From Escherichia coli phage phiS, in sequence record PP449093.1: DNA of 64,000 nucleotides. One strand, written 5' to 3'. The first letter of the stretch is position 1. The number at the start of each line of letters is the position of its first letter. The position numbers and the translations under genes are program-made. This document shows positions 5,260 through 53,521 of this stretch, piece after piece. The notes below the pieces were generated by a model, which saw only the letters and a list, made by a program, of their open reading frames with translations, was not told the origin of the DNA and searched no databases.

Positions 5260-5312
5260 TTCTGGTATAATGATGTGAATCGGGCGGCGATAGTCGCCCA
5301 ACTAATAGAGGA

Positions 5313-9376: not shown

Positions 9377-9387
9377 TTAAAAAGTTG

Positions 9388-9416
9388 TTGACTTACAGAA
9401 TCCAACATCGCATAAT
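9388..9416 (+). promoter_or_regulatory. early promoter cassette (TTGACT, 17 nt spacer, CATAAT)
   Basis: AAAAGTTGTTGACT upstream A-tract and -35, CATAAT -10, conserved ACACCCATACC leader. Confidence 0.65.
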
Positions 9417-9447
9417 ACACCCATACCAAACAAAAGGAGAATCAAAG

Positions 9448-9720
9448 ATGTGCAACGAAAACAGCAAAGTGTTGGCAATTGCAGATAAAGTAGGTTACTG
9501 GAAATGCTGGGATGATATGGAGAAATTAGGCGGTCGCTATCTCGATAACTTAGAGTTGCATTATTGCCAAGCGCGTAATGCAGAAGTTGCGGGAGTAGCA
9601 ATCGAAGATATTCCGTCTAAAGTCTTCGGATTCTCTAAAGATGATACTCTAGAGTATGTTTTTAAGGCTGTAATGGATCAAGCATGGGAAGACGCAGAGA
9701 CACGCGCTCTTGATTGGTGA
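9448..9720 (+). CDS. hypothetical early protein (90 aa)
   Basis: ATG after GGAGAATCAAAG; ORF-track start at 9385 is the TTG of the -35 element. Confidence 0.6.
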   Translation: MCNENSKVLAIADKVGYWKCWDDMEKLGGRYLDNLELHYCQARNAEVAGVAIEDIPSKVFGFSKDDTLEYVFKAVMDQAWEDAETRALDW

Positions 9721-9724
9721 TAAT

Positions 9725-9943
9725 ATGAACTGGTATAAAATTTGGAAAAATCAGGTGGAGGCTTATCTAGGGTATAAGCCCACCGACGAAGAATTACTCG
9801 ATGCAATGTACGAAGACGGACTAAATCCGAAAGTAGCCGCGCAAGAATACGCGGAATGGATGAAGGTCGAAAAGAACCTAGAGGCAACGAAAAATTTTCA
9901 CGAAAATAATAAAAAAGCAGTTGACGCCAAAGGTCATCGGTAG
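9725..9943 (+). CDS. hypothetical early protein (72 aa)
   Basis: First ATG of ORF-track 9710..9943. Confidence 0.5.
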   Translation: MNWYKIWKNQVEAYLGYKPTDEELLDAMYEDGLNPKVAAQEYAEWMKVEKNLEATKNFHENNKKAVDAKGHR

Positions 9944-9949
9944 TATTAT
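9921..9949 (+). promoter_or_regulatory. early promoter cassette (TTGACG, 17 nt spacer, TATTAT)
   Basis: Promoter lies in the 3 prime end of the preceding ORF; conserved CCCATACCGAAACGAA leader. Confidence 0.6.
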
Positions 9950-9983
9950 ACCCCCATACCGAAACGAAGTGGAGGAAATAAAA

Positions 9984-10226
9984 ATGGTTAAAGTTAATGT
10001 TATCGAAGTTGCACTGTACGACGCTGGAATCTTCCTGAATGAAAAAGAAGCTGCCGTCCTCGACGAACTGAAAACTGTTTTTGTTCCTGTAGTAGAAGAC
10101 GTAGAAGCAATCAAAATCGCTTCTCGTAAACTGTCCCGTGAAGCATTTGACATGATTGATCCGGTTTTCAAAGTTATGCACGAATGCGCGGTTATGATGA
10201 CCGAAGAAGAAGCGAAAAATTTCTAA
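9984..10226 (+). CDS. hypothetical early protein (80 aa)
   Basis: ATG after GGAGGAAATAAAA; ORF-track start at 9921 is inside the promoter. Confidence 0.6.
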   Translation: MVKVNVIEVALYDAGIFLNEKEAAVLDELKTVFVPVVEDVEAIKIASRKLSREAFDMIDPVFKVMHECAVMMTEEEAKNF

Positions 10227-10233
10227 AAACCAG

Positions 10234-10262
10234 TTGACGTAAAGAAACGGGAGTAGTAAGAT
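10234..10262 (+). promoter_or_regulatory. early promoter cassette with GGGAGTAGTAAGATACTCCC hairpin around the -10
   Basis: TTGACG, 17 nt spacer, TAAGAT; 7-bp stems GGGAGTA/TACTCCC flank the -10. Confidence 0.65.
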
Positions 10263-10291
10263 ACTCCCATACCAAACGAAAGGAGAATCAC

Positions 10292-10504
10292 ATGAAATCT
10301 ATCGAGCAAGTAGTAACAGAGTTTATGAGCTACGAAGGAAACCGCATCTTTGGACGTTCTCAAGTTCGCGAGATCGTGGAAGAGGTCTCTGGAGAGTTTG
10401 CGGAATCTGGTCACGTTACCACGCAAGAACGTAAAGAAGAAGCAGTAAACCAGATCATGGCTATGCAGAAAATGCGTATTAATGCACGAGCGGGTAAAAA
10501 TTAA
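10292..10504 (+). CDS. hypothetical early protein (70 aa)
   Basis: ATG after GGAGAATCAC. Confidence 0.6.
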   Translation: MKSIEQVVTEFMSYEGNRIFGRSQVREIVEEVSGEFAESGHVTTQERKEEAVNQIMAMQKMRINARAGKN

Positions 10505-10511
10505 AAAGTAG

Positions 10512-10540
10512 TTGACACCGGATTAAGGGAGTAGTAAGAT
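10512..10540 (+). promoter_or_regulatory. early promoter cassette with GGGAGTAGTAAGATACTCCC hairpin
   Basis: TTGACA, 17 nt spacer, TAAGAT inside the dyad. Confidence 0.65.
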
Positions 10541-10573
10541 ACTCCCATCAAGAAAAACATTGAGGAATATATT

Positions 10574-29104: not shown

Positions 29105-29128
29105 GCCTAAAATTTTATGAAAAAGGTG

Positions 29129-29156
29129 TTGACATGCTGATGTTAGGATGTATAAT
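29129..29156 (+). promoter_or_regulatory. sigma70-like early promoter
   Basis: AAAAAGGTGTTGACA, 16 nt spacer, TATAAT, ACAAACATCGAAAC leader. Confidence 0.6.
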
Positions 29157-29186
29157 ACAAACATCGAAACAAAGGAGGATAAAAAT

Positions 29187-30431
29187 ATGAAAACTTACTT
29201 TGCAAAAGATGTTTGTTATATTATCAAAAATAAATCCGTCTCAAAAACACCAGAACATTACGAGAATCTCTCAATAAGTTATGCATTGTCTCATGGTTTC
29301 GTTTATTTGGGGTTTATTGGAGAATATTCTGGATGCCAAACCCTGTCAAATTTTGAATGTAAAAGACATGGAACGTTTGCGGTCAGAGTAAAAAATCTAA
29401 ATCATGCTAAACATGGTTGCCCAAACTGTGCCCTTGAGAATAGGGCAGAAAAAAGAAAATTGAGTATAGAAAAGATTTATAACGACATAAATCGAATCTG
29501 TGATGAGAACGGAACCATAGAATTAACAGAAATTAAAGGTGGGTATAAAACAACAAAAACACGAAATTTATTTTTTAAATGTAAATTGTGTAATGGCATG
29601 TTTAATACATCACATGATCATTTAAAACGAGGTCAAGCATGTCCAAAATGTCGGTATAAAAAAATTTCTGTGTGTAATACTAGAAACCAACTTGATATTG
29701 AACTTGACATAAAAATAGAATGTAAAAAAAGAAAAACCGTTGAATTTGTAGAATTTGAAAATGGATATTGCAGATACAAGTCAAAAAATTTAATAATGAG
29801 ATGTTTGCGTGGACACGGAAATTACACAACAACAGCAAACGACTTTTTTAAGGGATGTGGTTGTCCTACATGCGGAGGAACGAAAAGACTAACAGAAAAA
29901 CAAGCATCTGAACAAATGATAAAAGAGTGTGAAATTAGAGGTTATGATTTTTTGGGATTTTTTAATGGGTATAAAAAGTCGGCAGAACCTAATGCAAAAT
30001 TAAAATGTAAACGCAGCGGGGTAAGTTTTTATACATCACACAACAATTTTATGAAAGGACAAAACTGTAAGTGTTGCTCTGAATTTGGATATAGAACAAC
30101 GAAATCTGGTGTTTTCTATGTACAGAAACTGTTAGAAAATAATATTTTTTGTGGTGTTAAATTTGGTGTAACCAATAGAACAACAAAAGAACGAATTGGA
30201 GGTCAATCTCGCCTTTCCAAATTCGACCACGAGATCTTTTATGAACTTACTTTACAAGACGGTCAAAAGATCTTAGACTTAGAGAACAAGATCAAGGAAG
30301 CGATGAAAGGTAAAACTTCCTATATCTCAAAAGAAGATATGCCGGATGGCTACACAGAGACAGTAGCACCGTCCGAATTGAGCACTATCATGTATATCGT
30401 AAAATCTTTTGAAAAAGAGTTGACAAAGTAA
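29187..30431 (+). CDS. Cys-rich protein: four tandem zinc-ribbon-like repeats plus C-terminal GIY-YIG-like domain
   Basis: Four repeats of about 28 aa ending in GCPxC / CPKC / CPTCGG / CKCC; C-terminal GVFYVQ...KFGVTNRTTKERI...EIFYEL; locus matches the T4 segG neighbourhood. Confidence 0.5.
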   Translation: MKTYFAKDVCYIIKNKSVSKTPEHYENLSISYALSHGFVYLGFIGEYSGCQTLSNFECKRHGTFAVRVKNLNHAKHGCPNCALENRAEKRKLSIEKIYNDINRICDENGTIELTEIKGGYKTTKTRNLFFKCKLCNGMFNTSHDHLKRGQACPKCRYKKISVCNTRNQLDIELDIKIECKKRKTVEFVEFENGYCRYKSKNLIMRCLRGHGNYTTTANDFFKGCGCPTCGGTKRLTEKQASEQMIKECEIRGYDFLGFFNGYKKSAEPNAKLKCKRSGVSFYTSHNNFMKGQNCKCCSEFGYRTTKSGVFYVQKLLENNIFCGVKFGVTNRTTKERIGGQSRLSKFDHEIFYELTLQDGQKILDLENKIKEAMKGKTSYISKEDMPDGYTETVAPSELSTIMYIVKSFEKELTK

Positions 30432-30447
30432 CATAGTATTGTATAAT
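30420..30447 (+). promoter_or_regulatory. sigma70-like early promoter
   Basis: TTGACA, 16 nt spacer, TATAAT, CGAACATCGAAAC leader; near-duplicate of the 29129 promoter. Confidence 0.6.
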
Positions 30448-30478
30448 ACGAACATCGAAACAAAGTGAGGATTACATT

Positions 30479-33028: not shown

Positions 33029-35272
33029 ATGATTAAAAATGTTGTTAAGTCTTCCGGTCTGACTGTTCCGTTTGAAAAAGAAAAAGTAATGAAAATTCTT
33101 GAAGCGGCAGCCGAAGGTCATAACGTTGATCCATATGAATTGTTTGATATGGTTGAACCACTTCTGACAGAAGGTATGTCTACCAATGATATCCAGAAAG
33201 TATTGATTAAGGTCGCAGCAGATAACATTACTGTAGAAACACCAGATTATCAATATGTAGCAAGTAACCTTGCAATGTTCGCGCTTCGCAAATCAGTATA
33301 CGGTCAATTCCAACCGATTGATTTTTATAGCCATATTGAGCGTAATATTGCAACCGGAAAATATGATCGCGAAATTCTGCAAAAGTATTCCCGCGAAGAA
33401 GTGGAATATCTGGAGAAATTCATCGATCATAAACTTGATTTTAAAATGACCTACGCTGGTGCGATGCAGTTAAAAGAGAAATATCTTGTTCAGGATCGCA
33501 GCACTAAGAAAATCATTGAAACACCGCAGTTTGCGTATATGCTGATCGGTATGTGCTTACATCAAGAAGAGACAGAAAATCGACTTGAACATGTGATTGA
33601 TTTTTATAATGCTGTTGCGAATAAGCAAATTTCTCTGCCTACTCCGATTATGGCGGGTGTGCGTACCCCGACACGACAATTTAGTTCGTGTGTGGTTATT
33701 GAAAGTGATGACTCATTGCAGGGCATCAACGAAACAGCAAATGCAATCATCAAGTATATTAGTAAGCGTGCTGGTATCGGTATCAATGCTGGTATGATTC
33801 GCGCGGAAGGATCTAAGATCGGGCATGGTGAAGTTCGTCATACTGGCGTTATCCCATTCTGGAAACATTTTCAGACTGCCGTTAAGTCATGCTCACAAGG
33901 CGGTATTCGTGGCGGGGCGGCGACTCTCTATTACCCAATGTGGCATTTAGAGTTTGAAAGTCTTATTGTGTTGAAGAACAACAAAGGGGTAGAAGATAAC
34001 CGCATTCGTCATCTTGATTACGGCGTACAGATTAATAACCTGATGGTAGAGCGATTCCTTAAACGGGATTACATTACTCTGTTTAGTCCAGATGTTGCAG
34101 GTGGCTTGTTGTGGGATCTGTACTTCCGAGATGAGGAAGGTTTCCGCCAGCTTTACGAAAAACTGGAAAAAGATCCGAGTGTTCGTAAAACTCGTGTTAA
34201 AGCCGAAGACCTGTTTTTAGCGGTAGCAATTGAACGTTTTAACACTGGTCGAATCTACCCAACATTCACAGACAACATGAACAATCACGGGGCGTTTATT
34301 CGTAATGTAGCACCAATTAAACAATCTAACCTGTGTTGTGAAATTGCTCTGCCAACAAAACCGATGGGTCGTGATGATTCAGAAATTAGCCTATGTACTT
34401 TGGCAGCATATGTTTTAGGTAATTTCGATATCGAAAATATGGAAGAAGTAGAACGCATTGCTATGGTTATGGTGCGTGCACTTGACAACCTGTTAGATTA
34501 TCAGGATTATCCTGTAGAACAAGCTCTGACAGCCAAAAAACGTCGCTCTCTGGGTGTTGGTGTTACTAACTTTGCATCATATCTAGCAGATAATTTCTTC
34601 ACATATGAAGACGCTAACGAGTTTACGCATAAAACGTTTGAACGCTTGCAATATGCTCTGATTAAGGCTAGTGTGCGACTGGCTAAAGAGAAGGGTGCTT
34701 GCGAACTGATGCACGAAACACGTTATGGTCGCGGTGAACTGCCTATCGACTGGTACAAAAAGACAGTAGATGAACTGGTTGATCCGGTGTATGAGATGGA
34801 TTGGGAAGAACTGCGCGAAGACCTGAAAAAATATGGCATTCGTAACAGTACACTTTCGGCGCTGATGCCGTGTGAGTCGTCTTCTCAGGTATCTAACAGC
34901 ACAAACGGTATTGAACCGCCTCGCGGGATTGTATCGGTTAAAGGATCGAAAGAAGGGCAATTTAATCAGGTTATTCCGAACGTAGAGAATAATGCTGATG
35001 TTATTGACCTGCTTTGGACACTGATCAAGAAAGGTAACAAGCCTTATCTGACACTGGCAGCGATCATGCAGAAGTTTGTAGATCAGGCGATTAGTTCCAA
35101 TACATCCTATGATCCAAGCACTTATAAGACTGGTAAAGTCGATATTGCTGATGTGTTAGATGATATGTTGTTCGCTCAACATTACGGTCTGAAAACCCTG
35201 TATTATGCGAACGTTCGCGACGGTGCAGATGGTACGGAAGACGCTAGCGAGTGCTCATCTTGCAAGCTGTAA
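33029..35272 (+). CDS. nrdA: aerobic ribonucleotide reductase large subunit
   Basis: 747 aa; class Ia RNR alpha motifs incl. catalytic NLCCEI and C-terminal CxxC. Confidence 0.95.
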   Translation: MIKNVVKSSGLTVPFEKEKVMKILEAAAEGHNVDPYELFDMVEPLLTEGMSTNDIQKVLIKVAADNITVETPDYQYVASNLAMFALRKSVYGQFQPIDFYSHIERNIATGKYDREILQKYSREEVEYLEKFIDHKLDFKMTYAGAMQLKEKYLVQDRSTKKIIETPQFAYMLIGMCLHQEETENRLEHVIDFYNAVANKQISLPTPIMAGVRTPTRQFSSCVVIESDDSLQGINETANAIIKYISKRAGIGINAGMIRAEGSKIGHGEVRHTGVIPFWKHFQTAVKSCSQGGIRGGAATLYYPMWHLEFESLIVLKNNKGVEDNRIRHLDYGVQINNLMVERFLKRDYITLFSPDVAGGLLWDLYFRDEEGFRQLYEKLEKDPSVRKTRVKAEDLFLAVAIERFNTGRIYPTFTDNMNNHGAFIRNVAPIKQSNLCCEIALPTKPMGRDDSEISLCTLAAYVLGNFDIENMEEVERIAMVMVRALDNLLDYQDYPVEQALTAKKRRSLGVGVTNFASYLADNFFTYEDANEFTHKTFERLQYALIKASVRLAKEKGACELMHETRYGRGELPIDWYKKTVDELVDPVYEMDWEELREDLKKYGIRNSTLSALMPCESSSQVSNSTNGIEPPRGIVSVKGSKEGQFNQVIPNVENNADVIDLLWTLIKKGNKPYLTLAAIMQKFVDQAISSNTSYDPSTYKTGKVDIADVLDDMLFAQHYGLKTLYYANVRDGADGTEDASECSSCKL

Positions 35273-35280
35273 AATAAGTG

Positions 35281-35309
35281 TTGACGCGGGGAGAAATCCC
35301 CGCTATAAT
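35281..35309 (+). promoter_or_regulatory. early promoter with palindromic GC-rich spacer
   Basis: TTGACG, spacer CGGGGAGAAATCCCCGC (17 nt dyad), TATAAT. Confidence 0.65.
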
Positions 35310-35341
35310 ACAACCATCAAAAACAAGTGAGGATTTTTATT

Positions 35342-38270: not shown

Positions 38271-38281
38271 GTTATTGGGTG

Positions 38282-38310
38282 TTGACAATCGGATCGTGGT
38301 ATAGCATAAT
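38282..38310 (+). promoter_or_regulatory. early promoter cassette (TTGACA, 17 nt spacer, CATAAT)
   Basis: Conserved GCACCCATCGAAACGGAGGA leader. Confidence 0.65.
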
Positions 38311-38334
38311 GCACCCATCGAAACGGAGGAACAT

Positions 38335-38553
38335 ATGGAAACAGAAGAACAAGTCATTGCATATTTTCATCGTAAAAAGATGAAACTTAGAATCGAAAAA
38401 CAGTACATCAATCACTACATTGACCAAGTTCACTTAACAAGTACACCTTACCTATTCCGGTTGATAAACCCTAGAAAACGGTGGGAGAAGTTGGATAGAA
38501 ACACAAAAATAATTGATAAGCTCACCCAATGGTGGAATGAATACAACAAGTAA
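38335..38553 (+). CDS. hypothetical early protein (72 aa)
   Basis: ORF after promoter cassette. Confidence 0.6.
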   Translation: METEEQVIAYFHRKKMKLRIEKQYINHYIDQVHLTSTPYLFRLINPRKRWEKLDRNTKIIDKLTQWWNEYNK

Positions 38554-38560
38554 AAAGTAG

Positions 38561-38589
38561 TTGACACTGAATAACGGGGGTAGTAAGAT
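38561..38589 (+). promoter_or_regulatory. early promoter cassette with GGGGGTAGTAAGATACTCCC hairpin
   Basis: TTGACA, 17 nt spacer, TAAGAT. Confidence 0.65.
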
Positions 38590-38622
38590 ACTCCCATCGA
38601 AACGAAACAAAGGAGAATCAAA

Positions 38623-38841
38623 ATGAAATTTACTTGCACCGACTCTATCAACAAACACTTTGTAGTGGGCGAAGTATACGAATCTACTACTATTCGTCAA
38701 CGTGACCTGATGGGTCGCCTTTACAATCAGCCAGTATTCATTATTGGTGAAGAATTGTTCTACATTGAAAACCGTCCGTGGGTTGCTTTCAATAAACGAG
38801 GACGCAAGGTAGCAAAATTCGAACTTGTCATTAAAAAGTAG
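38623..38841 (+). CDS. hypothetical early protein (72 aa)
   Basis: ORF after promoter cassette. Confidence 0.6.
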   Translation: MKFTCTDSINKHFVVGEVYESTTIRQRDLMGRLYNQPVFIIGEELFYIENRPWVAFNKRGRKVAKFELVIKK

Positions 38842-38870
38842 TTGACAGCATATCACGGGAGTAGTAAGAT
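38842..38870 (+). promoter_or_regulatory. early promoter cassette with GGGAGTAGTAAGATACTCCC hairpin
   Basis: TTGACA, 17 nt spacer, TAAGAT. Confidence 0.65.
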
Positions 38871-38903
38871 ACTCCCATACCAAAACAACTAAGGAGTATC
38901 AAG

Positions 38904-39302
38904 ATGATTAAATTTCAAACTCGCAAAGACGTTCTGGACTTCGTTAAAGTTTTCGGTTACGCTGCATTGCAACATGCAATGGACAAAATGACCATCTCCC
39001 CAGATCAGACTATGCTGATCCGTATGGTTAAAGCAACCGCCTACAAAAACGACATTACCCTCTCAGAAATCAACGACGGTAATACTGTCCGCGAGGTAAT
39101 TGTTTCTTTCGAATCACCGAAAATTGGCGGTTTTCATACCACGATGTTAGGTGAAATCACTGTCACTGTATACGGGCAAGGTGGCGGAGTGTTTACCGTC
39201 AAAGAAGCAATGGAAAATGGAACGCTGAACAAAGAAAAACTGGAATTTGTCCTGAAAATCATCAAGGAGCGTAACGAAGCTCGCGATATTCTGGAAAGTT
39301 AA
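38904..39302 (+). CDS. hypothetical early protein (132 aa)
   Basis: ORF after promoter cassette. Confidence 0.6.
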   Translation: MIKFQTRKDVLDFVKVFGYAALQHAMDKMTISPDQTMLIRMVKATAYKNDITLSEINDGNTVREVIVSFESPKIGGFHTTMLGEITVTVYGQGGGVFTVKEAMENGTLNKEKLEFVLKIIKERNEARDILES

Positions 39303-44878: not shown

Positions 44879-45347
44879 AATTGATATCTATGCGGGTGGA
44901 CCTTATCCATCGGGTGAATTGAGTAATTTCAATAAAAGACCATTCCGTCTATTTGGTTGTGATATTAACAGCACAGAAGGATTTTTACAGGGGCTAAGAT
45001 TTAAGAACCCTCAGAGACAAAGAGAAATCTTTTTGATGCACGGTGGCAAAGCAAAAAGAACCGGAAGAACTGAAAAGATTGAGAATCACATGTTATATTT
45101 TCAGGGTCGCCAGATTCATCGAATGAGTGAGCATTATTACAGACTGGTACATCTGGCATTTGTTACGATGGCACGGAATAACCCAGAATTTTGTAAAGCA
45201 TTACTCGCTACAGGAAATAAGAAATTACGTCATAGCATAGGTGGAACTGATCCGTTAAAGACTATATTGACTGAATCGGAATTTTGTAGTATCCTCAATG
45301 ATATTCGTGAACGTTTAACAAAACGAGGTGAAAATGTCAATTCTTAA
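44868..45347 (+). CDS. NADAR (YbiA/DUF1768)-like protein
   Basis: GELSNF, STEGFLQGLRF and ALLATG...L.H segments resemble the NADAR fold family; by-eye assignment. Confidence 0.45.
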   Translation: MTSEIDIYAGGPYPSGELSNFNKRPFRLFGCDINSTEGFLQGLRFKNPQRQREIFLMHGGKAKRTGRTEKIENHMLYFQGRQIHRMSEHYYRLVHLAFVTMARNNPEFCKALLATGNKKLRHSIGGTDPLKTILTESEFCSILNDIRERLTKRGENVNS

Positions 45348-46830
45348 TATCATTAACCAGCTTGCAGCGACCGACAAAACATCGCTGAAAGAAAAGATCC
45401 TGAAAGAATCCGCAAGTAATGAAACTCTGAAAGAATGCTTTTATCTGGCATATTGCAAACAGGTTACGTTTGGCGTAAAGAAATACGATAAACCATCGCG
45501 TTATTCGTCTGTATTGTCTTTATCCGGTGCATTACAGGTCTTTAAAAATAAACTTGCCACGCGTCAAGTAACTGGTAATGCAGCATTACAGCTAGTTACC
45601 GATACTCTGACTTGCTTGTCAGAGGATGATGCTAAAGTTGCAATGATGGTCCTGAATCGTGATCTGGAGTGTGGTTGTTCCGCTACCACTGCAAACAAGG
45701 TATGGAAGAAACTGATCCCCCAGCAACCGTGCCACCTTGCATCGTCATGTTCTGATAAGACTATTGCCAATATCAAATATCCGGCGTATGCACAACTTAA
45801 AAGCGATGGCGCTCGTGGTATGGCTGATATTGACGGGGAAACATTAGCAATCTATACCCGCTCAGGTAATACCTATCAAGGGCTTGATGATTTGTTTGCG
45901 GTTTTAGAGCGTCTACGAGGCCGTGGAATTGTTCTAGATGGCGAATTGGTATATATGCCTACCCTTTCGCAAACACCAGCGCAGAACTTCGTTGAGAGCG
46001 TTTATGATGGTACTCTGTCATGGATATTTGAAGAAGAGGAAATGCCATTAACGCCAGTAGCGGAAGCAGTGAAAGAATCCGTTGTTGCAGATCGTCAGAC
46101 CGGAAATGGTATCCTCAACAAATCACTTAAAGGAACTATTCCAAAAGAAGAAGCCCAATGTATTGTTTACACTGTCTGGGATGTTATCGACCGTGATGTG
46201 TATTACGGAAACGAGAAAGCAACGAAGCAATATAAAGATCGATTCGAAGAACTAAAACAGATTGTTGAAGAACTTAACGATCCTCGTGTTCAGATAATCG
46301 AAAATACTGTAGTTAACAATATCGATGAAGCTCGCGAAGTATATCATCGCTATGTAAACATGGGATTAGAAGGCATTATCCTTAAAAATTTACATGGTGT
46401 ATTTGAAGATCGTCGCAGTAAAGATCAGGTTAAATTTAAAGAAGTGATTGACTTCGACGCGGAAATTGTTGATGTATATCCGCATAGTAAAGATCCTAAT
46501 AAGGTAGGCGGTTTTACTGTCCGTAGTGCGTGCGGACGAATGATGACTAACACCGGATCGGGATTGACCGACACCACAACCGAAAAAGGCGATGATGGTA
46601 TTGAACGTGTGATTCCGTTTGACCGTCGAAATGAACTTGACCGAGAAATGTTATGGGCTGACCGTCATAACCTGATTGGAAAAGTCATTGAGATGACATG
46701 CAACGGGTATATCCGCAGCAAATCACGTAAAGAAGATGAACCGGAGTTCTCTTTATTTCTCCCAATCATAAAACGTATTCGCTACGACAAGACCACTGCA
46801 AATACAGTAAAAGAGGTATTCGATGTGTGA
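45334..46830 (+). CDS. 30: ATP-dependent DNA ligase gp30
   Basis: Resembles T4 DNA ligase (AQLKSDGAR adenylation motif, LDGELVY, SLKGTI.KEEAQC, EGIILKN, KFKEVID.D, GGF). Confidence 0.9.
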   Translation: MSILNIINQLAATDKTSLKEKILKESASNETLKECFYLAYCKQVTFGVKKYDKPSRYSSVLSLSGALQVFKNKLATRQVTGNAALQLVTDTLTCLSEDDAKVAMMVLNRDLECGCSATTANKVWKKLIPQQPCHLASSCSDKTIANIKYPAYAQLKSDGARGMADIDGETLAIYTRSGNTYQGLDDLFAVLERLRGRGIVLDGELVYMPTLSQTPAQNFVESVYDGTLSWIFEEEEMPLTPVAEAVKESVVADRQTGNGILNKSLKGTIPKEEAQCIVYTVWDVIDRDVYYGNEKATKQYKDRFEELKQIVEELNDPRVQIIENTVVNNIDEAREVYHRYVNMGLEGIILKNLHGVFEDRRSKDQVKFKEVIDFDAEIVDVYPHSKDPNKVGGFTVRSACGRMMTNTGSGLTDTTTEKGDDGIERVIPFDRRNELDREMLWADRHNLIGKVIEMTCNGYIRSKSRKEDEPEFSLFLPIIKRIRYDKTTANTVKEVFDV

Positions 46831-47299
46831 TAATGAAGGGGCGAAAGCCCCTAAACCTAAAAAATTGTCAAAGAAAGAGCAACGCCAGATCCTGAAAATG
46901 AAATATGGTGGACGTTGTGCCTATTGTGGCGAGGAACTAGGGGATCGCTGGCACGCAGACCACATCAAACCAGTATTGCGACGCTCAAAGGTAGTCTATG
47001 ATGAAAATGGACGAATTGCCCGTAATGATGATGGATCGTGGAAGTATAAGGTTGTAGGAATGCATAAACCGGAGCATGATATACTTGATAACATGAATCC
47101 GGCGTGTGTGCAATGCAATCTTTACAAAAGCTGTATGGGCTTAGAATACTGGCGTAAGTGTATACGCGAGAACTTCCAGAAGTACATTCAGCACAATATG
47201 GGATTGCGAGCGGCTAAACGCTTTGGCTTGCTGTCAATTCATGACCAGCCAGTAGAATTTTATTTCGAAAAGTACGAGCGCGAGCATCAAGAAAAATAA
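46823..47299 (+). CDS. HNH endonuclease
   Basis: CAYCGEEL...HADHIKP...NMNPACVQCN. Confidence 0.7.
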   Translation: MCDNEGAKAPKPKKLSKKEQRQILKMKYGGRCAYCGEELGDRWHADHIKPVLRRSKVVYDENGRIARNDDGSWKYKVVGMHKPEHDILDNMNPACVQCNLYKSCMGLEYWRKCIRENFQKYIQHNMGLRAAKRFGLLSIHDQPVEFYFEKYEREHQEK

Positions 47300-47313
47300 T
47301 TCAAAAAAAGTTG

Positions 47314-47342
47314 TTGACAGGGGATCACCGATCCCCTATACT
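47314..47342 (+). promoter_or_regulatory. early promoter with palindromic spacer GGGGATCACCGATCCCC
   Basis: TTGACA, 17-nt perfect dyad spacer containing two GATC, TATACT. Confidence 0.65.
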
Positions 47343-47387
47343 ACACACATCAAAACGAAACACACTTTCTTAAACGGAGAATCAAAA

Positions 47388-47555
47388 ATGTTCCAGACTA
47401 AAGCAGAATGCGAAGCATACATTGTAGCAAACCACGGTGAAGACTACCTGAAATTCGATATCGTAGTAGCACAGAAGATCACCGGAATGGTTGCAAAATA
47501 TCTGGGTGTTAAAGAAGGTTACTATCCAAGCAACGCACCAGAAATTAACAAATAA
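47388..47555 (+). CDS. hypothetical early protein (55 aa), paralog of 50645..50812
   Basis: MFQTKAECEAYIVANHGEDYLKFDIVVAQKI... against MFETKAACEAYIIETYGEDYLKFDIVVAQKI... Confidence 0.55.
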   Translation: MFQTKAECEAYIVANHGEDYLKFDIVVAQKITGMVAKYLGVKEGYYPSNAPEINK

Positions 47556-47558
47556 TAG

Positions 47559-47587
47559 TTGACAATGATTAAAGGGAGTAGTAAGAT
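47559..47587 (+). promoter_or_regulatory. early promoter cassette with GGGAGTAGTAAGATACTCCC hairpin
   Basis: TTGACA, 17 nt spacer, TAAGAT. Confidence 0.65.
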
Positions 47588-47619
47588 ACTCCCATAAAGA
47601 CAACAAACGGAGAATCAAA

Positions 47620-47799
47620 ATGAAAGCTATCGAAGTTCAGAAGTACATGGAACTCATCATTGAAGGTAAAGCACATACAGTATTGACTACCCACGTAGGA
47701 TATGATAAAAATGTGCATATGCTGGTAGACAATATCGGTTGGATGAAGTTTAATCCTAACGAGAATGTACAAGCTCAAGAAATGACCATCCCTTTCTAA
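47620..47799 (+). CDS. hypothetical early protein (59 aa)
   Basis: ATG after GGAGAATCAAA; below ORF-track cutoff. Confidence 0.5.
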   Translation: MKAIEVQKYMELIIEGKAHTVLTTHVGYDKNVHMLVDNIGWMKFNPNENVQAQEMTIPF

Positions 47800-47811
47800 G
47801 AGGAATATATT

Positions 47812-48090
47812 ATGATGCGAATTACTGCAACGCTGGATAAGACACACAAAGAAAGATTTTTCGGTATGATCTTAAAAACGCCGATTTTCGATAATTACCT
47901 TTATGTTGACTATGACGGTCACATTAGCTATAAATGTAAAAATGATATTCGTGATTCCTTTGGTGATAAATCACAAGCCGATATTCATGACCACTGGTGG
48001 AACCATGACGAACCTTTACGAGTTATCGCAGTTGATGTAAAAACAACAAAAGAAGCTGATAAGGTAGTGAATGATTATGAGCAAATTTAA
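47812..48090 (+). CDS. hypothetical protein (92 aa), member of a 4-gene paralog family
   Basis: Shared Y.YVD..L.I.Y ... HW ... V.A.D pattern with 48491, 48816 and 49513 ORFs. Confidence 0.55.
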   Translation: MMRITATLDKTHKERFFGMILKTPIFDNYLYVDYDGHISYKCKNDIRDSFGDKSQADIHDHWWNHDEPLRVIAVDVKTTKEADKVVNDYEQI

Positions 48091-48286
48091 AGAATACAAA
48101 GCATATCAACAGATTTTGCGAGTATACGCACCAGAGTTCGCCGAAAAGATGATGGAAGATGCATCAAAATGCCCGTCCTTTTCTGGAAACAAAAACCATT
48201 ATTCGACTGGTATTGTGTCATGGAAAGAAACCGCATATACTCAACAATGGATAGAGGTTTTCTCAAAAACTCTTGATTGGTGTTAA
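48071..48286 (+). CDS. hypothetical protein (71 aa), MSKFK family paralog 1
   Basis: MSKFKEYKAY...MMEDA...GIVSWKETAY. Confidence 0.5.
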   Translation: MIMSKFKEYKAYQQILRVYAPEFAEKMMEDASKCPSFSGNKNHYSTGIVSWKETAYTQQWIEVFSKTLDWC

Positions 48287-48288
48287 TT

Positions 48289-48504
48289 ATGAGCAAATTT
48301 AAAGATTATCGAGCATATAAAGCGATCTGCGATATATTCGATGAAAAGACCGCTCATGCAATGATGGAAGATGCAGAACAATATGAATCATTCGTCAATT
48401 CCAAAGATTGCACAGTAAACGGGATTGTGTGCTGGAAAGATACAAAGTATGAAGAAAAATGGATTACTGTGTATTACGGAGAACTAGAATATGAAATTAA
48501 CTAA
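48289..48504 (+). CDS. hypothetical protein (71 aa), MSKFK family paralog 2
   Basis: MSKFKDYRAY...MMEDA...GIVCWKDTKY. Confidence 0.5.
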   Translation: MSKFKDYRAYKAICDIFDEKTAHAMMEDAEQYESFVNSKDCTVNGIVCWKDTKYEEKWITVYYGELEYEIN

Positions 48505-48811
48505 AAAGATTTTCCCAGAATTGCGTAACTGTCTGTTATTGGTTACTGAATATAAGCCGTATGCGATCTACTTGTATGTTGATGAAAATCTGAAAATCCG
48601 TTACTATGATTATACGTCTCCAGTGATGAAATCATTTGCTCACTCGATAGCAAATAACTGTATGAATCACAATCATTGGGTATCAGAAACGGATGACGAT
48701 GCGTCAGAAGTTGTAGTGGTTGCATGGAATCTATCACCAGCGGAAGCAGATCAAGCACGCATTAAGCATTATGCGAAAAACAATTGGTTTGACCTTATAA
48801 GTGAGGACTAA
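48491..48811 (+). CDS. hypothetical protein (106 aa), 4-gene paralog family
   Basis: YLYVDENLKIRYYDY...HNHW...VVAWN. Confidence 0.55.
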   Translation: MKLTKKIFPELRNCLLLVTEYKPYAIYLYVDENLKIRYYDYTSPVMKSFAHSIANNCMNHNHWVSETDDDASEVVVVAWNLSPAEADQARIKHYAKNNWFDLISED

Positions 48812-48815
48812 TATT

Positions 48816-49094
48816 ATGTTCAAAGTAGGTGATAAGTTTATTCTTAGTCGTGATATTCTACCTAATCTGAAAGGTTGTATCATCAATCCTAGTAAAAATT
48901 CATGGTTTTATCTGTTTATCGACGACAAACTGAATGTACGCGCCGAATATAAAGAAGGTCTTCGCACTGGCCTCGGTTTCTTTAACGATCACGATCATAG
49001 CCATTGGCTAAACGGTGGATTCGAAGCAACGGTGCTCGCGGTTGATGTGACCTACACAAACATCATAGAAAAATATCAAAAAATTATTTTATAA
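48816..49094 (+). CDS. hypothetical protein (92 aa), 4-gene paralog family
   Basis: FYLFIDDKLNVRAEY...HSHW...VLAVD; ATG after GTGAGGACTAATATT. Confidence 0.55.
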   Translation: MFKVGDKFILSRDILPNLKGCIINPSKNSWFYLFIDDKLNVRAEYKEGLRTGLGFFNDHDHSHWLNGGFEATVLAVDVTYTNIIEKYQKIIL

Positions 49095-49100
49095 AAAGTG

Positions 49101-49129
49101 TTGACATAAGATCGGGTGTATAGCATAAT
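49101..49129 (+). promoter_or_regulatory. early promoter cassette with GGGTGTAT..ATACACCC dyad around the -10
   Basis: TTGACA, 17 nt spacer, CATAAT. Confidence 0.65.
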
Positions 49130-49175
49130 ACACCCATCGAAACGAGATACACTTTCTAACTAGGAGAATCAAATT

Positions 49176-49463
49176 ATGGCATACATCACCATCACTCTGA
49201 AAGTTAACAAATTTGCTCACGCTGCACACGAAACCGATAATGCAATCCGTAACAACAAGTTCGCACGTCTGGTACGCGATGCGGTAGCTAAAGAGTTCAA
49301 CTTCAAATTTGCCGATGGTAAAGTTATCACTAAATGGACTCATGACGGCGAAACTAAAGTAGAACTTGCTGACAACTTCGCAAATCAGGAATATGCACAC
49401 CGTCGCATTAATGAAATTATCAGCGATGAACTCTACTACGGTGTACAGGAAGGACTGTTTTAA
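49176..49463 (+). CDS. hypothetical early protein (95 aa)
   Basis: ATG after GGAGAATCAAATT. Confidence 0.6.
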   Translation: MAYITITLKVNKFAHAAHETDNAIRNNKFARLVRDAVAKEFNFKFADGKVITKWTHDGETKVELADNFANQEYAHRRINEIISDELYYGVQEGLF

Positions 49464-49512
49464 TATATGGGGCGTTAAGCCACTTTTAATCTATCTGAAT
49501 GAGGATATCACT

Positions 49513-49821
49513 ATGAAAAATCTTGTAGTTGAATTTACCCGCGAGAATTTACCACAATTACGCAACTCTCTGCTTAAACTAGAGAACAGTAATTATGATG
49601 TATATTTTTACATCACAGAAGACCTAGAGATCCTTTACGCAGATTATCCAGGTCCGATCCGTACTTTCGAAACAGCATCAAAGTATAAAAATGTTTACGG
49701 TCATGAGCACTGGTTACGAGAAAACCCAGGTCGCAAGAAAGCACGCGTTAAAGTGCTGGCGATTGACATAACACCAGCATACGCCGACCGGATTGCACAG
49801 AATGATTATTTGTCTAAATGA
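49513..49821 (+). CDS. hypothetical protein (102 aa), 4-gene paralog family
   Basis: VYFYITEDLEILYADY...HEHW...VLAID; ATG after GAGGATATCACT. Confidence 0.55.
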   Translation: MKNLVVEFTRENLPQLRNSLLKLENSNYDVYFYITEDLEILYADYPGPIRTFETASKYKNVYGHEHWLRENPGRKKARVKVLAIDITPAYADRIAQNDYLSK

Positions 49822-49828
49822 TTTTATT

Positions 49829-49857
49829 AGCCGACCTTAGCGTCGGCTTTTTTATTG
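49829..49857 (+). terminator. rho-independent terminator
   Basis: AGCCGAC-CTTAGC-GTCGGCT followed by TTTTTTATT. Confidence 0.7.
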
Positions 49858-49877
49858 CATAAAATTTTAAAAAAGAA

Positions 49878-49906
49878 TTGACACCAGATCACGCCTATAG
49901 CATAAA
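49878..49906 (+). promoter_or_regulatory. early promoter cassette (TTGACA, 17 nt spacer, CATAAA)
   Basis: Conserved ATACACCCATCAAAACGAGATACC leader. Confidence 0.6.
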
Positions 49907-49947
49907 TACACCCATCAAAACGAGATACCACTTAGGAGAATCAAACA

Positions 49948-50217
49948 ATGGCACTGACTAAAACCACTACCAACTTTGCAAAACGTCACGGCTTCGACCT
50001 TGAAATCAATAGCTTTAACGATTACACCCTTCTGTGTGTATATGAAATCGAAAATGATTGCGAGTGGATGTTCAGCTATCGCGTAAACGAAGACGGATCT
50101 TTCACTTGGAACGGAAATATCTATCTTGCACAGGAAGTAAAAGAAGAACTTCCGGCGACCATCAAAGATGAGAAACATTTACGTCAAGTTTTAAAATTTA
50201 TTTCTGAAAATATCTAA
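49948..50217 (+). CDS. hypothetical early protein (89 aa)
   Basis: ATG after GGAGAATCAAACA. Confidence 0.6.
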   Translation: MALTKTTTNFAKRHGFDLEINSFNDYTLLCVYEIENDCEWMFSYRVNEDGSFTWNGNIYLAQEVKEELPATIKDEKHLRQVLKFISENI

Positions 50218-50225
50218 AAAAGTTG

Positions 50226-50254
50226 TTGACACTAAAGTAAGAACATAGCATAAT
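50226..50254 (+). promoter_or_regulatory. early promoter cassette (TTGACA, 17 nt spacer, CATAAT)
   Basis: AAAAAGTTGTTGACA ... CATAATACACCCATACCGAAACGAA. Confidence 0.65.
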
Positions 50255-50287
50255 ACACCCATACCGAAACGAACTGGAGAATCAAAA

Positions 50288-50569
50288 ATGAAATTCATCA
50301 AAGCAACCGAAATCCTGAAAAACAAAGAAGCATACATCGGAAACATCGTTGGTATGAACATTCGCGGCGCTGGTAGCCAGTGGACCAAACTGGTTGATGT
50401 TAAAGCTAAAGGCGATAAAATTGAGTTCACTGTAAAAATGCTTACGCATAACGCACATATGGGTATCAAGACAAAAACGATGGCAGCAGATAAAAGCATT
50501 AACTATCAGGATCTGGGTGATTGGCTGAACTGGTGCAAAATGCACAACATCGAAACTAATCACGAATAA
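50288..50569 (+). CDS. hypothetical early protein (93 aa)
   Basis: ATG after GGAGAATCAAAA. Confidence 0.6.
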   Translation: MKFIKATEILKNKEAYIGNIVGMNIRGAGSQWTKLVDVKAKGDKIEFTVKMLTHNAHMGIKTKTMAADKSINYQDLGDWLNWCKMHNIETNHE

Positions 50570-50582
50570 TTTAAAAAAGTTG

Positions 50583-50611
50583 TTGACGGGGATCGGGAGA
50601 TCCCCTATAAT
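50583..50611 (+). promoter_or_regulatory. early promoter with palindromic spacer GGGGATCGGGAGATCCCC
   Basis: TTGACG, 17 nt GC-rich dyad spacer with two GATC, TATAAT. Confidence 0.65.
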
Positions 50612-50644
50612 ACACACATACCGAAACGAAATAGGAGAATCAAA

Positions 50645-50812
50645 ATGTTCGAGACTAAAGCAGCATGTGAAGCATATATCATTGAAACCTACGGTGAAGA
50701 TTATCTGAAATTTGACATTGTAGTAGCACAGAAGATTGTAGGGATGGTTGCGAAATACCTGGGTGTTAAAGAAGGTTACTATCCTAGCAACGCACCAGAA
50801 ATTAACAAATAA
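50645..50812 (+). CDS. hypothetical early protein (55 aa), paralog of 47388..47555
   Basis: About 85 percent identical to the 47388 product by eye; same promoter class. Confidence 0.55.
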   Translation: MFETKAACEAYIIETYGEDYLKFDIVVAQKIVGMVAKYLGVKEGYYPSNAPEINK

Positions 50813-50826
50813 TTTTATAAAAAGTG

Positions 50827-50855
50827 TTGACAGGGGAGGATAACTCCCCTACAAT
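50827..50855 (+). promoter_or_regulatory. early promoter with palindromic spacer GGGGAGGATAACTCCCC
   Basis: TTGACA, 17 nt dyad spacer, TACAAT. Confidence 0.6.
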
Positions 50856-50895
50856 ACAACCATCAAAACGAGATACCACTTAGGAGAATCAAACA

Positions 50896-51147
50896 ATGGC
50901 TAACATCGAAACCGCAAAGAAAATCGCTAAAGACCTGAACGTTAAAGGCTTCCGTAAACTGAAATTACAGCGTGTACGCTACACCATCGGCAAACAGTGC
51001 TCTTTCATGAGCGAAGAAATTGCTAACAGCCTGATTGATAACCTGATTGCGGCTGGCTGGGAAGTTGCGGATCTGAAAACTTGCCGCGAACTGGCTAACA
51101 AAGGTCTTTTAGATTCTGTTACTATCAAACCAATGGGGGCAGCGTGA
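50896..51147 (+). CDS. hypothetical early protein (83 aa)
   Basis: ATG after GGAGAATCAAACA. Confidence 0.6.
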   Translation: MANIETAKKIAKDLNVKGFRKLKLQRVRYTIGKQCSFMSEEIANSLIDNLIAAGWEVADLKTCRELANKGLLDSVTIKPMGAA

Positions 51148-51680
51148 ACAATATAGACTGGAAGAAATACTTTAATTATGATCCTGATACTGGTATTCTT
51201 ACATGGAAGGAGAGAACAGATATACACCCATCAAGAATAAAACAATGGAATGCTGCATGGGCTGGAAAGGAGGTCGGGTCACTAGGAAGTGGTGGACGTT
51301 ATCTTGAATCGTCAATAAAAATTGACGGTAAAATTATTAACTACAAAGTTCATCGAGTATGTTATATTATCCACAATGGACCTATACCAGAAGGATATGA
51401 AGTAGACCATATTAATCACATTAAGACAGATAATAGAGCGGTGAATTTTGAACTTAAGACACATCAAGACAACATGAGGAATCAAACAAAATCTAAAAAG
51501 AATACAAGCGGACACAGTGGAATACATAAAAACAAATACAATAAATGGGTAGTTAGAATTGGCAGCGGTCGTCGTGGTGATAGAAAATATCTAGGATGCT
51601 TCGATACATTAGAAGAAGCTATAGAGGTTAGAACCAAAGCAGAAAGAGAGCATGGCTATCATGAAAACCACGGAAAGTAA
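51144..51680 (+). CDS. HNH homing endonuclease with AP2-like DNA-binding domain
   Basis: VDHINHIKTDNRAVN HNH motif; C-terminal SGHSGIHKNKYNKWVVRI...YLGCFDTLEEA; GTG start overlapping the upstream stop. Confidence 0.7.
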   Translation: MNNIDWKKYFNYDPDTGILTWKERTDIHPSRIKQWNAAWAGKEVGSLGSGGRYLESSIKIDGKIINYKVHRVCYIIHNGPIPEGYEVDHINHIKTDNRAVNFELKTHQDNMRNQTKSKKNTSGHSGIHKNKYNKWVVRIGSGRRGDRKYLGCFDTLEEAIEVRTKAEREHGYHENHGK

Positions 51681-52386
51681 ACTTATATTCTGTAATTTTG
51701 ATGGGTCCGGTATCATGGGTCTAGAATGGGCGAAAGCAGGTCATAAGGTGATCTGCTTTAACGCAGATGATGCGGATCATGGAACATATAAAAAATACAA
51801 CACTCGATTTGAGCATCCCAACCTAACATATGTTAATGCATGGATTGACCTAGATTGGTTGGAAAGGGCAATGGACCTTGAATGGGGCAAACCGGATATG
51901 ATCTTTGCGTTTCCTAGCTGTTCAAATTTAGCGGTTAGTGGCGCTGCACATTTTGAGCGTAAGCGAAAAACTCTAGGTCCACTCATTCAGCATAGAGATG
52001 TTCAAACAGCTAAAATAACCGCTTATTTGGGTGAATGGCTAGGAGTTCCCTACATGATAGAGAATCCTGTAAGCGTTATCTCTAGCATGTGGCGTAAGCC
52101 TGATTATATGTTCCATCCGTGGGAATATGGCGGTTATTTGCCGGAAGATGATAAACATCCTACTTTTCCTGAGTATATTGCCGCCCGTGATATGTACCCG
52201 AAAAGGACTTGCTTATGGACCGGACAAGGCTTTATAATGCCAGAAAAGAAACCGTTGCAGATTAATAAAGGGTACAGTAAACAGCATTCTAAGCTAGGCG
52301 GGAAAGGAACGAAAACAAAGACTATAAGGTCACTTACCCCGCGAGGATTCGCAAAGGCAGTATTTGAAGCAAATAAGGATCTATAA
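51652..52386 (+). CDS. compact C5-cytosine-methyltransferase-fold protein (244 aa, no obvious target-recognition domain)
   Basis: Motif I FCNFDGSGIMG; motif IV-like FAFPSCSNLAVSG (Cys kept, Ser where PC has Pro); motif VI ENP; C-terminal RSLTPRGFAKAV resembles motif IX. Confidence 0.5.
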   Translation: MAIMKTTESKLIFCNFDGSGIMGLEWAKAGHKVICFNADDADHGTYKKYNTRFEHPNLTYVNAWIDLDWLERAMDLEWGKPDMIFAFPSCSNLAVSGAAHFERKRKTLGPLIQHRDVQTAKITAYLGEWLGVPYMIENPVSVISSMWRKPDYMFHPWEYGGYLPEDDKHPTFPEYIAARDMYPKRTCLWTGQGFIMPEKKPLQINKGYSKQHSKLGGKGTKTKTIRSLTPRGFAKAVFEANKDL

Positions 52387-52716: not shown

Positions 52717-53235
52717 ATGAACAGATTAACCCCTAAACGCCGTTACTATACCAATACTAAAAACTTTGTCATCTCTGTTTATGAGGCGTGGTTAGAAGAT
52801 GGCTATATCAACATGAACCCAGATTATCAGCGTCCTTTGGTATGGGACACCGAAAACAAACGTATGTTTATCGAAAACCTGATTAATGATTTTCCGGTTG
52901 GTGCTATCGCAATGGCTAAGATTGATGATGGCTCTCGATATGAGATCGAAATCGTGGACGGTAAACAGCGTTTAAACGCAATATTCTCCTTCATGAAGGA
53001 TGAGTTTAGCATTGCTGGTAATGATGATTCTATGCTGTATTACAGTGATTTTACGCCAGCAGAAAAGCGACGTTTCCGAAATCTCGGACTACCCGCGATA
53101 ATGATGGAAGAGAGCACACGAGAAGACCGATTAGAGTATTTCTACAAAACAAACTTTTTCGGTGTCCCTCAATCGGAAGAACATCGCCAGCATGTGATTT
53201 CCCTATTGCAAGATGAGCAATTAAAAAATAACTAA
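52717..53235 (+). CDS. DUF262 / ParB-like nuclease-domain protein (172 aa)
   Basis: YQRPLVW and IVDGKQRLNAI (DGQQR-type) motifs; ATG after AGGAGAC; ORF-track start 52681 is TTG. Confidence 0.55.
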   Translation: MNRLTPKRRYYTNTKNFVISVYEAWLEDGYINMNPDYQRPLVWDTENKRMFIENLINDFPVGAIAMAKIDDGSRYEIEIVDGKQRLNAIFSFMKDEFSIAGNDDSMLYYSDFTPAEKRRFRNLGLPAIMMEESTREDRLEYFYKTNFFGVPQSEEHRQHVISLLQDEQLKNN

Positions 53236-53242
53236 AAAGTTG

Positions 53243-53272
53243 TTGACAGGGGGATCGGTGATCCCCTATAAT
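53243..53272 (+). promoter_or_regulatory. early promoter with palindromic spacer GGGGGATCGGTGATCCCC
   Basis: TTGACA, 18 nt dyad spacer with two GATC, TATAAT. Confidence 0.65.
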
Positions 53273-53308
53273 GCACACATACCGAAACGAACTACTAAGG
53301 AGTATCAA

Positions 53309-53521
53309 ATGGCTAACATCGAAATCATCATTACCGACGTAACTTATGACCGCATTAACGAAATCGGTACTGCATTACTGGAAGATGAAACAACTCGTAC
53401 CATCAACTACGCAGAATACGTTGAAATGCGTGGCTGGATTAAACGAGTAGGAAAATATACCCTGATTGAAAAAGACTATTCAGGATATACCTTAGAGCAA
53501 TTGCTCGATGGTGCATTATAA
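53309..53521 (+). CDS. hypothetical early protein (70 aa)
   Basis: ATG after AAGGAGTATCAA; N-terminus MANIE shared with the 50896 product. Confidence 0.55.
   Translation: MANIEIIITDVTYDRINEIGTALLEDETTRTINYAEYVEMRGWIKRVGKYTLIEKDYSGYTLEQLLDGAL

Follow-up and report, generated by a model that had tools for sequence, protein, structure and literature searches.

Hyperplastic region 3 of phage phiS: an array of promoter-early stem-loop cassettes that is probably shuffled by cassette recombination

Positions 47,314 to 50,855 of a 64,000-nucleotide stretch of Escherichia coli phage phiS (sequence record PP449093.1), which we refer to as the window in the following, hold a dense array of small genes and repeated promoter cassettes. 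In its gene order, this locus is collinear with ORF205 to ORF191 of RB49 and Phi1, two members of Krischvirus, the RB49-like T4-type coliphages of the Straboviridae, and a database match of the region yields 93–98% DNA identity to 58 Krischvirus genomes. It is thus the ‘hyperplastic region 3’ (HPR3) of RB49-like phages, a real structure, but one that has already been described. The promoter-early stem-loop (PeSL) was first defined at HPR3 of RB49 and Phi1 (Arbiol, Comeau, Kutateladze, Adamia & Krisch 2010, Genome Biol Evol 2:140, PMC2839356; Arbiol et al., 2010 in the following). About 50 PeSLs were reported per genome, divided into five subclasses by stem-loop position and mostly preceding ORFans in hyperplastic regions (Arbiol et al., 2010), and the concept was subsequently widened to other T4-like phages (Comeau et al., 2014, PMC4122927).

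Genes and promoter cassettes of the array

Thirteen open reading frames (ORFs) of 55–106 aa run on the + strand from 47388 to 50812, and all match annotated genes of RB49, Phi1 and GEC-3S. Judged by their ratios of nonsynonymous to synonymous substitutions (median dN/dS 0–0.41 against orthologs), all 13 genes are real and under purifying selection. An earlier reading, which was made from the sequence alone (the sequence-only reading), had counted about 14 small genes; the fourteenth (50896–51147) follows the last promoter. Among them are:

47388..47555, +, 55-aa gene, copy 1; RB49 ORF205 homolog; phrog_8009
47620..47799, +, 59-aa gene; ORF204 homolog
47812..48090, +, HW-family gene 1, 92 aa; ORF203 homolog
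48077..48286, +, MSKFK gene 1, 69 aa; ORF202 homolog; first 14 nt shared with the gene before it
48289..48504, +, MSKFK gene 2, 71 aa; ORF201 homolog
48491..48811, +, HW-family gene 2, 106 aa; ORF200 homolog
48816..49094, +, HW-family gene 3, 92 aa; ORF199 homolog
49176..49463, +, 95-aa gene; ORF198 homolog; very conserved
49513..49821, +, HW-family gene 4, 102 aa; ORF197 homolog; structure predicted
49948..50217, +, 89-aa gene; ORF194 homolog
50288..50569, +, 93-aa gene; ORF193 homolog
50645..50812, +, 55-aa gene, copy 2; ORF191 homolog

The genes at 47388, 49948, 50288 and 50645 are singletons. By contrast, a six-gene operon at 47620–49094 is tightly packed, with 14-nt start/stop overlaps or gaps of 2–12 nt, and a two-gene operon at 49176–49821 is closed by a terminator at 49829–49848. 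The proposal of a tandem array of promoter-gene cassettes therefore holds for the repeated cassettes and their duplicated genes, but not for the notion of one promoter per gene, as seven promoters serve 13 genes and two operons are present.

The seven promoter cassettes extend from 47294 to 50894 on the + strand, their -35 elements starting at 47314, 47559, 49101, 49878, 50226, 50583 and 50827, and promoters are annotated at all seven positions in the GEC-3S record. Together with the terminator, they are arranged as follows:

47294..47387, +, PeSL cassette 1; -35 at 47314, stem-loop GGGGATCaccGATCCCC in the spacer, -10 TATACT, leader, GGAGAATCAAAA-ATG
47538..47621, +, PeSL cassette 2; -35 at 47559, stem-loop GGGAGTagtaagatACTCCC overlapping the -10; ahead of the six-gene operon
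49081..49174, +, PeSL cassette 3; -35 at 49101, stem-loop GGGTGTATagcataATACACCC overlapping the -10
49829..49848, +, intrinsic terminator hairpin AGCCGACcttagcGTCGGCT, then a T-run; annotated terminator in GEC-3S and G2494
49853..49946, +, PeSL cassette 4; -35 at 49878, weaker -10
50201..50287, +, PeSL cassette 5; -35 at 50226, without a stem-loop
50562..50646, +, PeSL cassette 6; -35 at 50583, stem-loop GGGGATCgggaGATCCCC in the spacer
50804..50894, +, PeSL cassette 7; -35 at 50827, spacer stem-loop GGGGAGgataaCTCCCC, -19.4 kcal/mol; ahead of the ORF190 homolog 50896–51147

Within ~85–95 nt, a cassette comprises an A+T-rich UP-like tract, a -35/-10 pair, usually a G/C-rich stem-loop, a conserved leader and GGAGAATCAAA-ATG. 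Six of the seven match the sigma-70 consensus at 10–11 of 12 positions with a 17-nt spacer, while cassette 4 (P49878) has TTGACA and a weaker -10. Across the six cassettes scored, A+T accounts for 80–90% of the 20 nt upstream. AAAAAGT(T/G)GTTGACA is conserved, and the stop codons of the preceding genes fall within the A+T tract. The cassettes are ~60–85% identical to one another, and an alignment of 12 of them from across the window contains 24 invariant columns, which span AAAAAG..GTTGAC, the -10, the leader ACACCCAT...AAACGA and GGAGAATCAAA-ATG; GGAGAATCAAA(N0-3)ATG is invariant.

G/C-rich stem-loops are predicted in five of the seven cassettes (-13 to -19 kcal/mol, z = -3.0 to -5.2), within the spacer at 47314, 50583 and 50827 and overlapping the -10 at 47559 and 49101. 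For instance, the palindromic spacers GGGGATCaccGATCCCC at 47320 and GGGGATCgggaGATCCCC at 50588 fold as RNA with -13.8 kcal/mol (z = -3.4) and -14.9 kcal/mol (z = -3.0), respectively. The stems of different cassettes differ in sequence, but pairing is kept in all of them. Cassette 4 has no spacer stem-loop but a canonical terminator upstream (49829–49848), with which it forms a PeSL of the ‘upstream stem-loop’ type. An Rfam search returned no RNA family within 46800–51400.

A profile built from the aligned cassettes has 19 matches in the window, all on the + strand, of which 12 were seeds. Their density is ~1.9/kb in the array (seven in 3.65 kb) compared with 0.2/kb in the rest of the window. 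Elsewhere, twelve further PeSL-like cassettes, likewise all on the + strand, are located at 2265–2332, 9364–10555, 29106–30463, 35264–35325, 38279–38904 and 53221–53310. Given that four of them cluster in 9364–10555 and three in 38279–38904, the window contains other hyperplastic patches.

The cassettes of the array share with the PeSLs of Arbiol et al. (2010) the sigma-70 boxes, the A+T tract, the stem-loop (except in cassette 5) and a Shine-Dalgarno sequence (SD) and ATG before an ORFan, as well as the concentration in a hyperplastic region, the association with indels and orthology to the PeSLs of RB49 and Phi1. Cassettes 1 and 6 correspond to PeSL206/205 and PeSL193/192 of the published reporter assays, although the lack of ORF192 turns the latter into PeSL193/191 in the window. 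In these assays, the PeSL206/205 promoter was very strong (~13,000 Miller units), with most clones acquiring -35 or -10 mutations, and termination by a PeSL stem-loop was comparable to that by rrnB T1 (Arbiol et al., 2010). Moreover, mini-circles with ORF191–194 or ORF192–193 were detected by inverse PCR, and their junctions lay in the flanking PeSLs, downstream of the -10 and ahead of the ATG (Arbiol et al., 2010).

Gene content and junctions among related phages

We compared the loci of 14 related genomes with the window by tblastn and blastn. Between ORF205 and ORF191, these 15 genomes (window included) display seven gene-content layouts, so that the zone is variable among relatives, as the sequence-only reading required of it. 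The differences in gene content fall into eight classes, and in six of them the junctions lie in or at the edge of cassettes:

Class 1: five genes, ORF210–206, separating the HNH gene from ORF205 in most genomes; missing in the window and G5211
Class 2: KMB43, JSE and G2494 with an additional ORF behind the HNH gene; similarity ends at 47283, just before cassette 1
Class 3: ORF196/195 insertion in RB49, KMB43, MIZ4, MIZ6 and UPWr_E1
Class 4: insertion at 50565–50576, the upstream edge of cassette 6; ORF192 in RB49, G2494, FL38 and MIZ6, an unrelated gene in JSE
Class 5: in UPWr_E1, second 55-aa copy deleted, 50644 joined to 50805 (cassette 6 to cassette 7)
Class 6: in MIZ4, seven genes deleted, 50644 joined to 53234 (cassette 6 to the cassette at 53221–53310)
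Class 7: in JSE and KMB43, 48295–49058 replaced by divergent alleles, inside the operon and away from cassettes
Class 8: HNH gene at 51148–51679 in the window only, a non-cassette insertion

The ORF196/195 insert of class 3 is flanked on both sides by a repeat of window positions 49830–49926, which comprise the terminator and cassette 4. As in Phi1, ORF192, ORF195 and ORF196 are absent from the window.

At the sequence level, chimeric junctions are stronger evidence than the coincidence of breakpoints with cassettes. Cassette 1 of the window is identical to the HNH/ORF210 cassette of ELT4, including its longer leader, up to the ATG, and is then followed by ORF205, so that the crossover lay in the shared GGAGAATCAAAAATG. 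Cassette 1 is thus a chimera of the HNH/210 and 206/205 cassettes, left by the loss of the five intervening genes. This exact junction was found in none of the 58 database genomes. G5211 lost the same five genes through a different junction, which lies upstream in the A+T tract/-35 region. The same genome (locus 5030–5292 and 8296–8558) also displays, relative to the window and ELT4, a swap between the cassettes of its two 55-aa genes: the cassette of copy 1 carries the loop and the TATAAT of copy 2, while the cassette of copy 2 carries the TATACT of copy 1. This is consistent with a patchwise exchange between the two units, 3.2 kb apart, by gene conversion or double crossover.

Divergence also occurs within single genes. 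The ORF203 homolog (47812–48090) is only 58–60% identical in Phi1, GEC-3S and FL38, and the ORF201 homolog (48289–48504) 62–65% identical in RB49, G5211, Skers, MIZ6 and kaaroe, although the neighbours exceed 92% in both cases. These divergent alleles and the replacement of 48295–49058 are exchanges that proceeded without PeSLs.

Paralogous families and flanking genes

The 55-aa gene had been noted to occur twice with a palindromic-spacer promoter, at about 85% identity by eye. The alignment puts this value at 87% over 172 nt (47385–47556 versus 50642–50813), and the proteins are 87% identical as well (E = 8e-36). Since the homology runs from the -35 region through the whole cassette to the stop codon, the copied unit comprised both cassette and gene; the two units lie 3.26 kb apart. 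The synonymous divergence of the paralogs (dS 0.67) and their dN/dS of 0.09 imply that the duplication is old and that both copies have been maintained. Each copy has its own ortholog of 96–100% identity in 12 of the 14 genomes, and the genomes examined possess one or two copies, never more, with one each in MIZ4 and UPWr_E1. The family consists of only 5 clusters, and its structural model is poor (predicted local distance difference test score, pLDDT, of 64). We also considered excision of the whole 3.26-kb array between the two copies, which constitute 240-nt direct repeats, but rejected it, as such a deletion was found in none of the 14 genomes examined.

The MSKFK proteins are 43% identical (E = 2e-19) and both belong to phrog_8471; they had rightly been taken for duplicates, but the first of them starts at 48077 rather than 48071, the second at 48289. 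Likewise, the four ORFs that had been grouped by a shared pattern around HW (47812, 48491, 48816 and 49513) do form one family. Although their pairwise identities are just 20–34%, with E-values from 1e-15 to 0.078, a family hidden Markov model (HMM) recovers exactly these four ORFs from the six-frame window (E = 4e-30 to 2e-45; all four were seed sequences), and an H-x-H-W motif and a C-terminal Tyr are invariant across 25 sequences of the family. Unlike the 55-aa pair, however, the MSKFK and HW paralogs evidently stem from older duplications within operons, not of promoter-gene cassettes.

For HW gene 4 (49513), AlphaFold yields a model with a pLDDT of 81 and a predicted template modelling score (pTM) of 0.78, in which a small antiparallel sheet is combined with a C-terminal helix and the H-x-H-W motif lies in a loop of lower confidence. 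BFVD models of HW paralogs superpose on this predicted structure with template modelling (TM) scores of 0.63–0.75, while nothing in the PDB matches the fold. When the PDB was searched by sequence, neither the HW-family profile nor the 95-aa and 93-aa proteins gave a hit below E = 0.07. An exhaustive profile search among 1.84 billion protein representatives identified only 14 clusters of HW proteins at 50% identity, and the homolog search recovered only Krischvirus-type proteins. The metagenomic protein P0055 (203 aa) contains two tandem HW domains, each with H-x-H-W, a hint that HW proteins might work as dimers or through two sites.

It is possible, but in our view rather unlikely, that the HW genes are diversified early inhibitors, with each paralog or divergent allele tuned to a variant of one host target, e.g. 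a defence protein. If so, the PeSL array would be a means for Krischviruses to exchange these specificities. More generally, a role in host takeover or anti-defence, as the sequence-only reading had imagined, is plausible for early, dispensable genes with a fast turnover, but it is a conjecture that has no support from sequence, family or fold. The region remains a reasonable hunting ground for such early functions, with no candidate mechanism singled out. A literature search found the RB49 and Phi1 locus tags of these genes in no paper, and Krischvirus is not covered by the HIDEN-SEQ essentiality preprint.

Upstream of the array, a gene for a 158-aa HNH endonuclease (46823–47299, +) shares its first 8 nt with the end of the DNA ligase gene (gp30 homolog, 45328–46830); among the loci compared, all 11 that reach that far upstream possess it, at 97–99% protein identity. 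Downstream, a 178-aa gene of the HNH_3 homing-endonuclease-like type (51144–51680, +; Pfam E = 3e-17) is inserted between the ORF190 homolog and a methyltransferase homolog. None of the 14 Krischvirus loci compared has this gene, and no Krischvirus database record spans it. Its nearest DNA relatives, 66–68% identical over ~550 nt, are found in the unrelated ~50-kb siphoviruses Kalemo, Poky, BEK12A and PeterMerian, where they likewise adjoin a Dcm-like cytosine methyltransferase. This points to a homing endonuclease that accompanies, or is aimed at, the adjoining methyltransferase gene. The latter, a 244-aa ORF (51652–52386, +), is 91–92% identical to an RB49-like protein annotated as ‘DNA methyltransferase’ or ‘Dcm’; profile searches do not confirm this annotation, with no Pfam match at E <= 0.01 and no NCBIfam match.

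Recombination between cassettes and comparison with known systems

We interpret the array as an early-transcribed block of non-core ORFans in the HPR3 of a Krischvirus, punctuated by PeSL cassettes and shuffled by recombination between them, and assign this reading a probability of about 0.88. Immediately after infection, host RNA polymerase would fire the cassette promoters, as was shown for the orthologs in RB49 and Phi1, and the stem-loops would attenuate read-through from upstream cassettes, as was published for PeSL211/210. Being ~60–85% identical, the cassettes could be crossed over by the homologous recombination machinery of the phage. Such crossovers would delete, insert or swap the genes between cassettes without breaking genes or their expression signals, and excised mini-circles of a PeSL and its gene are a possible intermediate. 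The process is one of insertion, deletion and replacement via cassette recombination, published as PeSL-mediated modular shuffling (Arbiol et al., 2010).

Several points weigh against this interpretation. Promoter firing, attenuation and mini-circles are presumed here by analogy with the RB49 and Phi1 orthologs, and cassette 5 (50226) shows no stem-loop on folding. Two of the eight classes of variation, the divergent alleles inside the operon of JSE and KMB43 and the HNH gene found in the window only, have their junctions away from cassettes. As viable indels must be intergenic, and cassettes are nearly the only sizeable intergenic DNA, the coincidence of breakpoints with cassettes is also partly expected. 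Finally, Pfam and NCBIfam provide no function, domain or family for the 13 proteins, and their PHROGs families are all of unknown function.

The expectation that viable indels are intergenic in any case also underlies an alternative in which the cassettes are alike solely through selection for a strong early promoter and ribosome-binding site and have no special role in rearrangement. The invariant columns are indeed mostly functional (UP tract, -35, -10 and SD), but the leader is conserved as well at positions without an evident function in the promoter, for example in ACACCCAT...AAACGA. Selection alone also leaves unexplained why chimeric cassettes are homologous on both sides of their junctions, why distant cassettes exchange patches, why the ORF196/195 insert has a copy of cassette DNA on either side and why mini-circles with cassette junctions were found (Arbiol et al., 2010). 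As far as can be read from the junctions, the chimeras largely refute this alternative, which we regard as the least probable of all. Another alternative is an integron-like system, in which a dedicated site-specific recombinase would act on attC-like GGGG...CCCC stem-loops to move gene cassettes. The structure of these stem-loops is conserved despite their different sequences, circular cassette intermediates have been reported, and a stem-loop-binding protein was raised as a speculation by Arbiol et al. (2010). Yet there is no integrase or recombinase in or beside the array, whose neighbours are genes for DNA ligase, for HNH endonucleases and for a homolog of methyltransferase; in contrast to integron cassettes, each cassette here carries a promoter of its own, and cassette 5 stands in the array without a stem-loop. 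Furthermore, the crossover points vary between the A+T tract/-35 region (G5211), SD-ATG (window) and -10 to ATG (published circles), a difference between events that fits homologous rather than site-specific exchange. We therefore give the integron-like model very little credence.

A different kind of process would be a recent or ongoing tandem amplification, a genomic ‘accordion’, in which selection drives up the copy number of an anti-defence gene. T4, for example, amplifies tifA against toxIN. Three paralog families inside 3.5 kb, the duplication of the 55-aa gene along with its promoter and its variable copy number, with a single copy in MIZ4 and UPWr_E1, all agree with such a process. The copies are nevertheless old, as is evident from the values for the 55-aa pair (dS 0.67, dN/dS 0.09) and from the low identities of the MSKFK (43%) and HW (20–34%) paralogs, and either 55-aa copy has its close ortholog in 12 of 14 genomes. 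In addition, the 55-aa copies are not in tandem but 3.26 kb apart, no genome examined has more than two of them, and the single-copy genomes arose through cassette-to-cassette deletion. A recent expansion is thus very improbable. What stands of the cassette amplification proposed by the sequence-only reading is the copying of the 55-aa cassette together with its gene; this event is old, the MSKFK and HW duplications took place within operons, and the process is one of shuffling by recombination.

The type example of PeSL-mediated modular shuffling was published in 2010, and the present work is mainly a confirmation. It adds that, with 14–58 genomes instead of the original two, the cassette-to-cassette junctions mostly fit the model, and that independent losses of the same five genes used different crossover points within the cassette. 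New are also the chimeric junction in phiS and the three paralog families (55-aa pair, MSKFK pair and HW quartet), which are not mentioned in PMC2839356. Among these, HW is a lineage-restricted ORFan family with a confidently predicted fold that nothing solved matches.

The closest counterparts of the array are the PeSLs of HPR3 in RB49 and Phi1, with which it shares the locus, the cassette anatomy, the place before ORFans, the hyperplastic enrichment and the association with indel junctions. Its arrangement, however, is new: ORF210–206 are missing, cassette 1 is chimeric, and ORF192, ORF195 and ORF196 are absent. Among T-even phages, repeats of early promoters and stem-loops also flank highly variable small genes in the internal-protein (IP) loci and hyperplastic regions of T4, and GGGC/GCCC-associated deletions are described there in the work of Repoila (1994) and Mosig (1998) as cited in PMC2839356. 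According to the latter, these loci are analogous rather than homologous, their early promoters being of the T4 type and their stems weaker and A+T-rich. Integron arrays likewise carry small exchangeable genes, mostly of unknown function, and have circular intermediates and repeated structured boundary sites, but the array has no integrase and no attI or attC, uses seven separate promoters instead of a single Pc, and shows variable crossover points. Lastly, it resembles the morons of lambdoid phages in its small non-essential genes with their own promoter and terminator, inserted between other genes. Morons, reportedly described by Hendrix et al. in 2000, are believed to be acquired through illegitimate recombination; they do not share repeated regulatory sequences on which recombination could act, and they are typically expressed from prophages, whereas the array belongs to the early region of a virulent phage.

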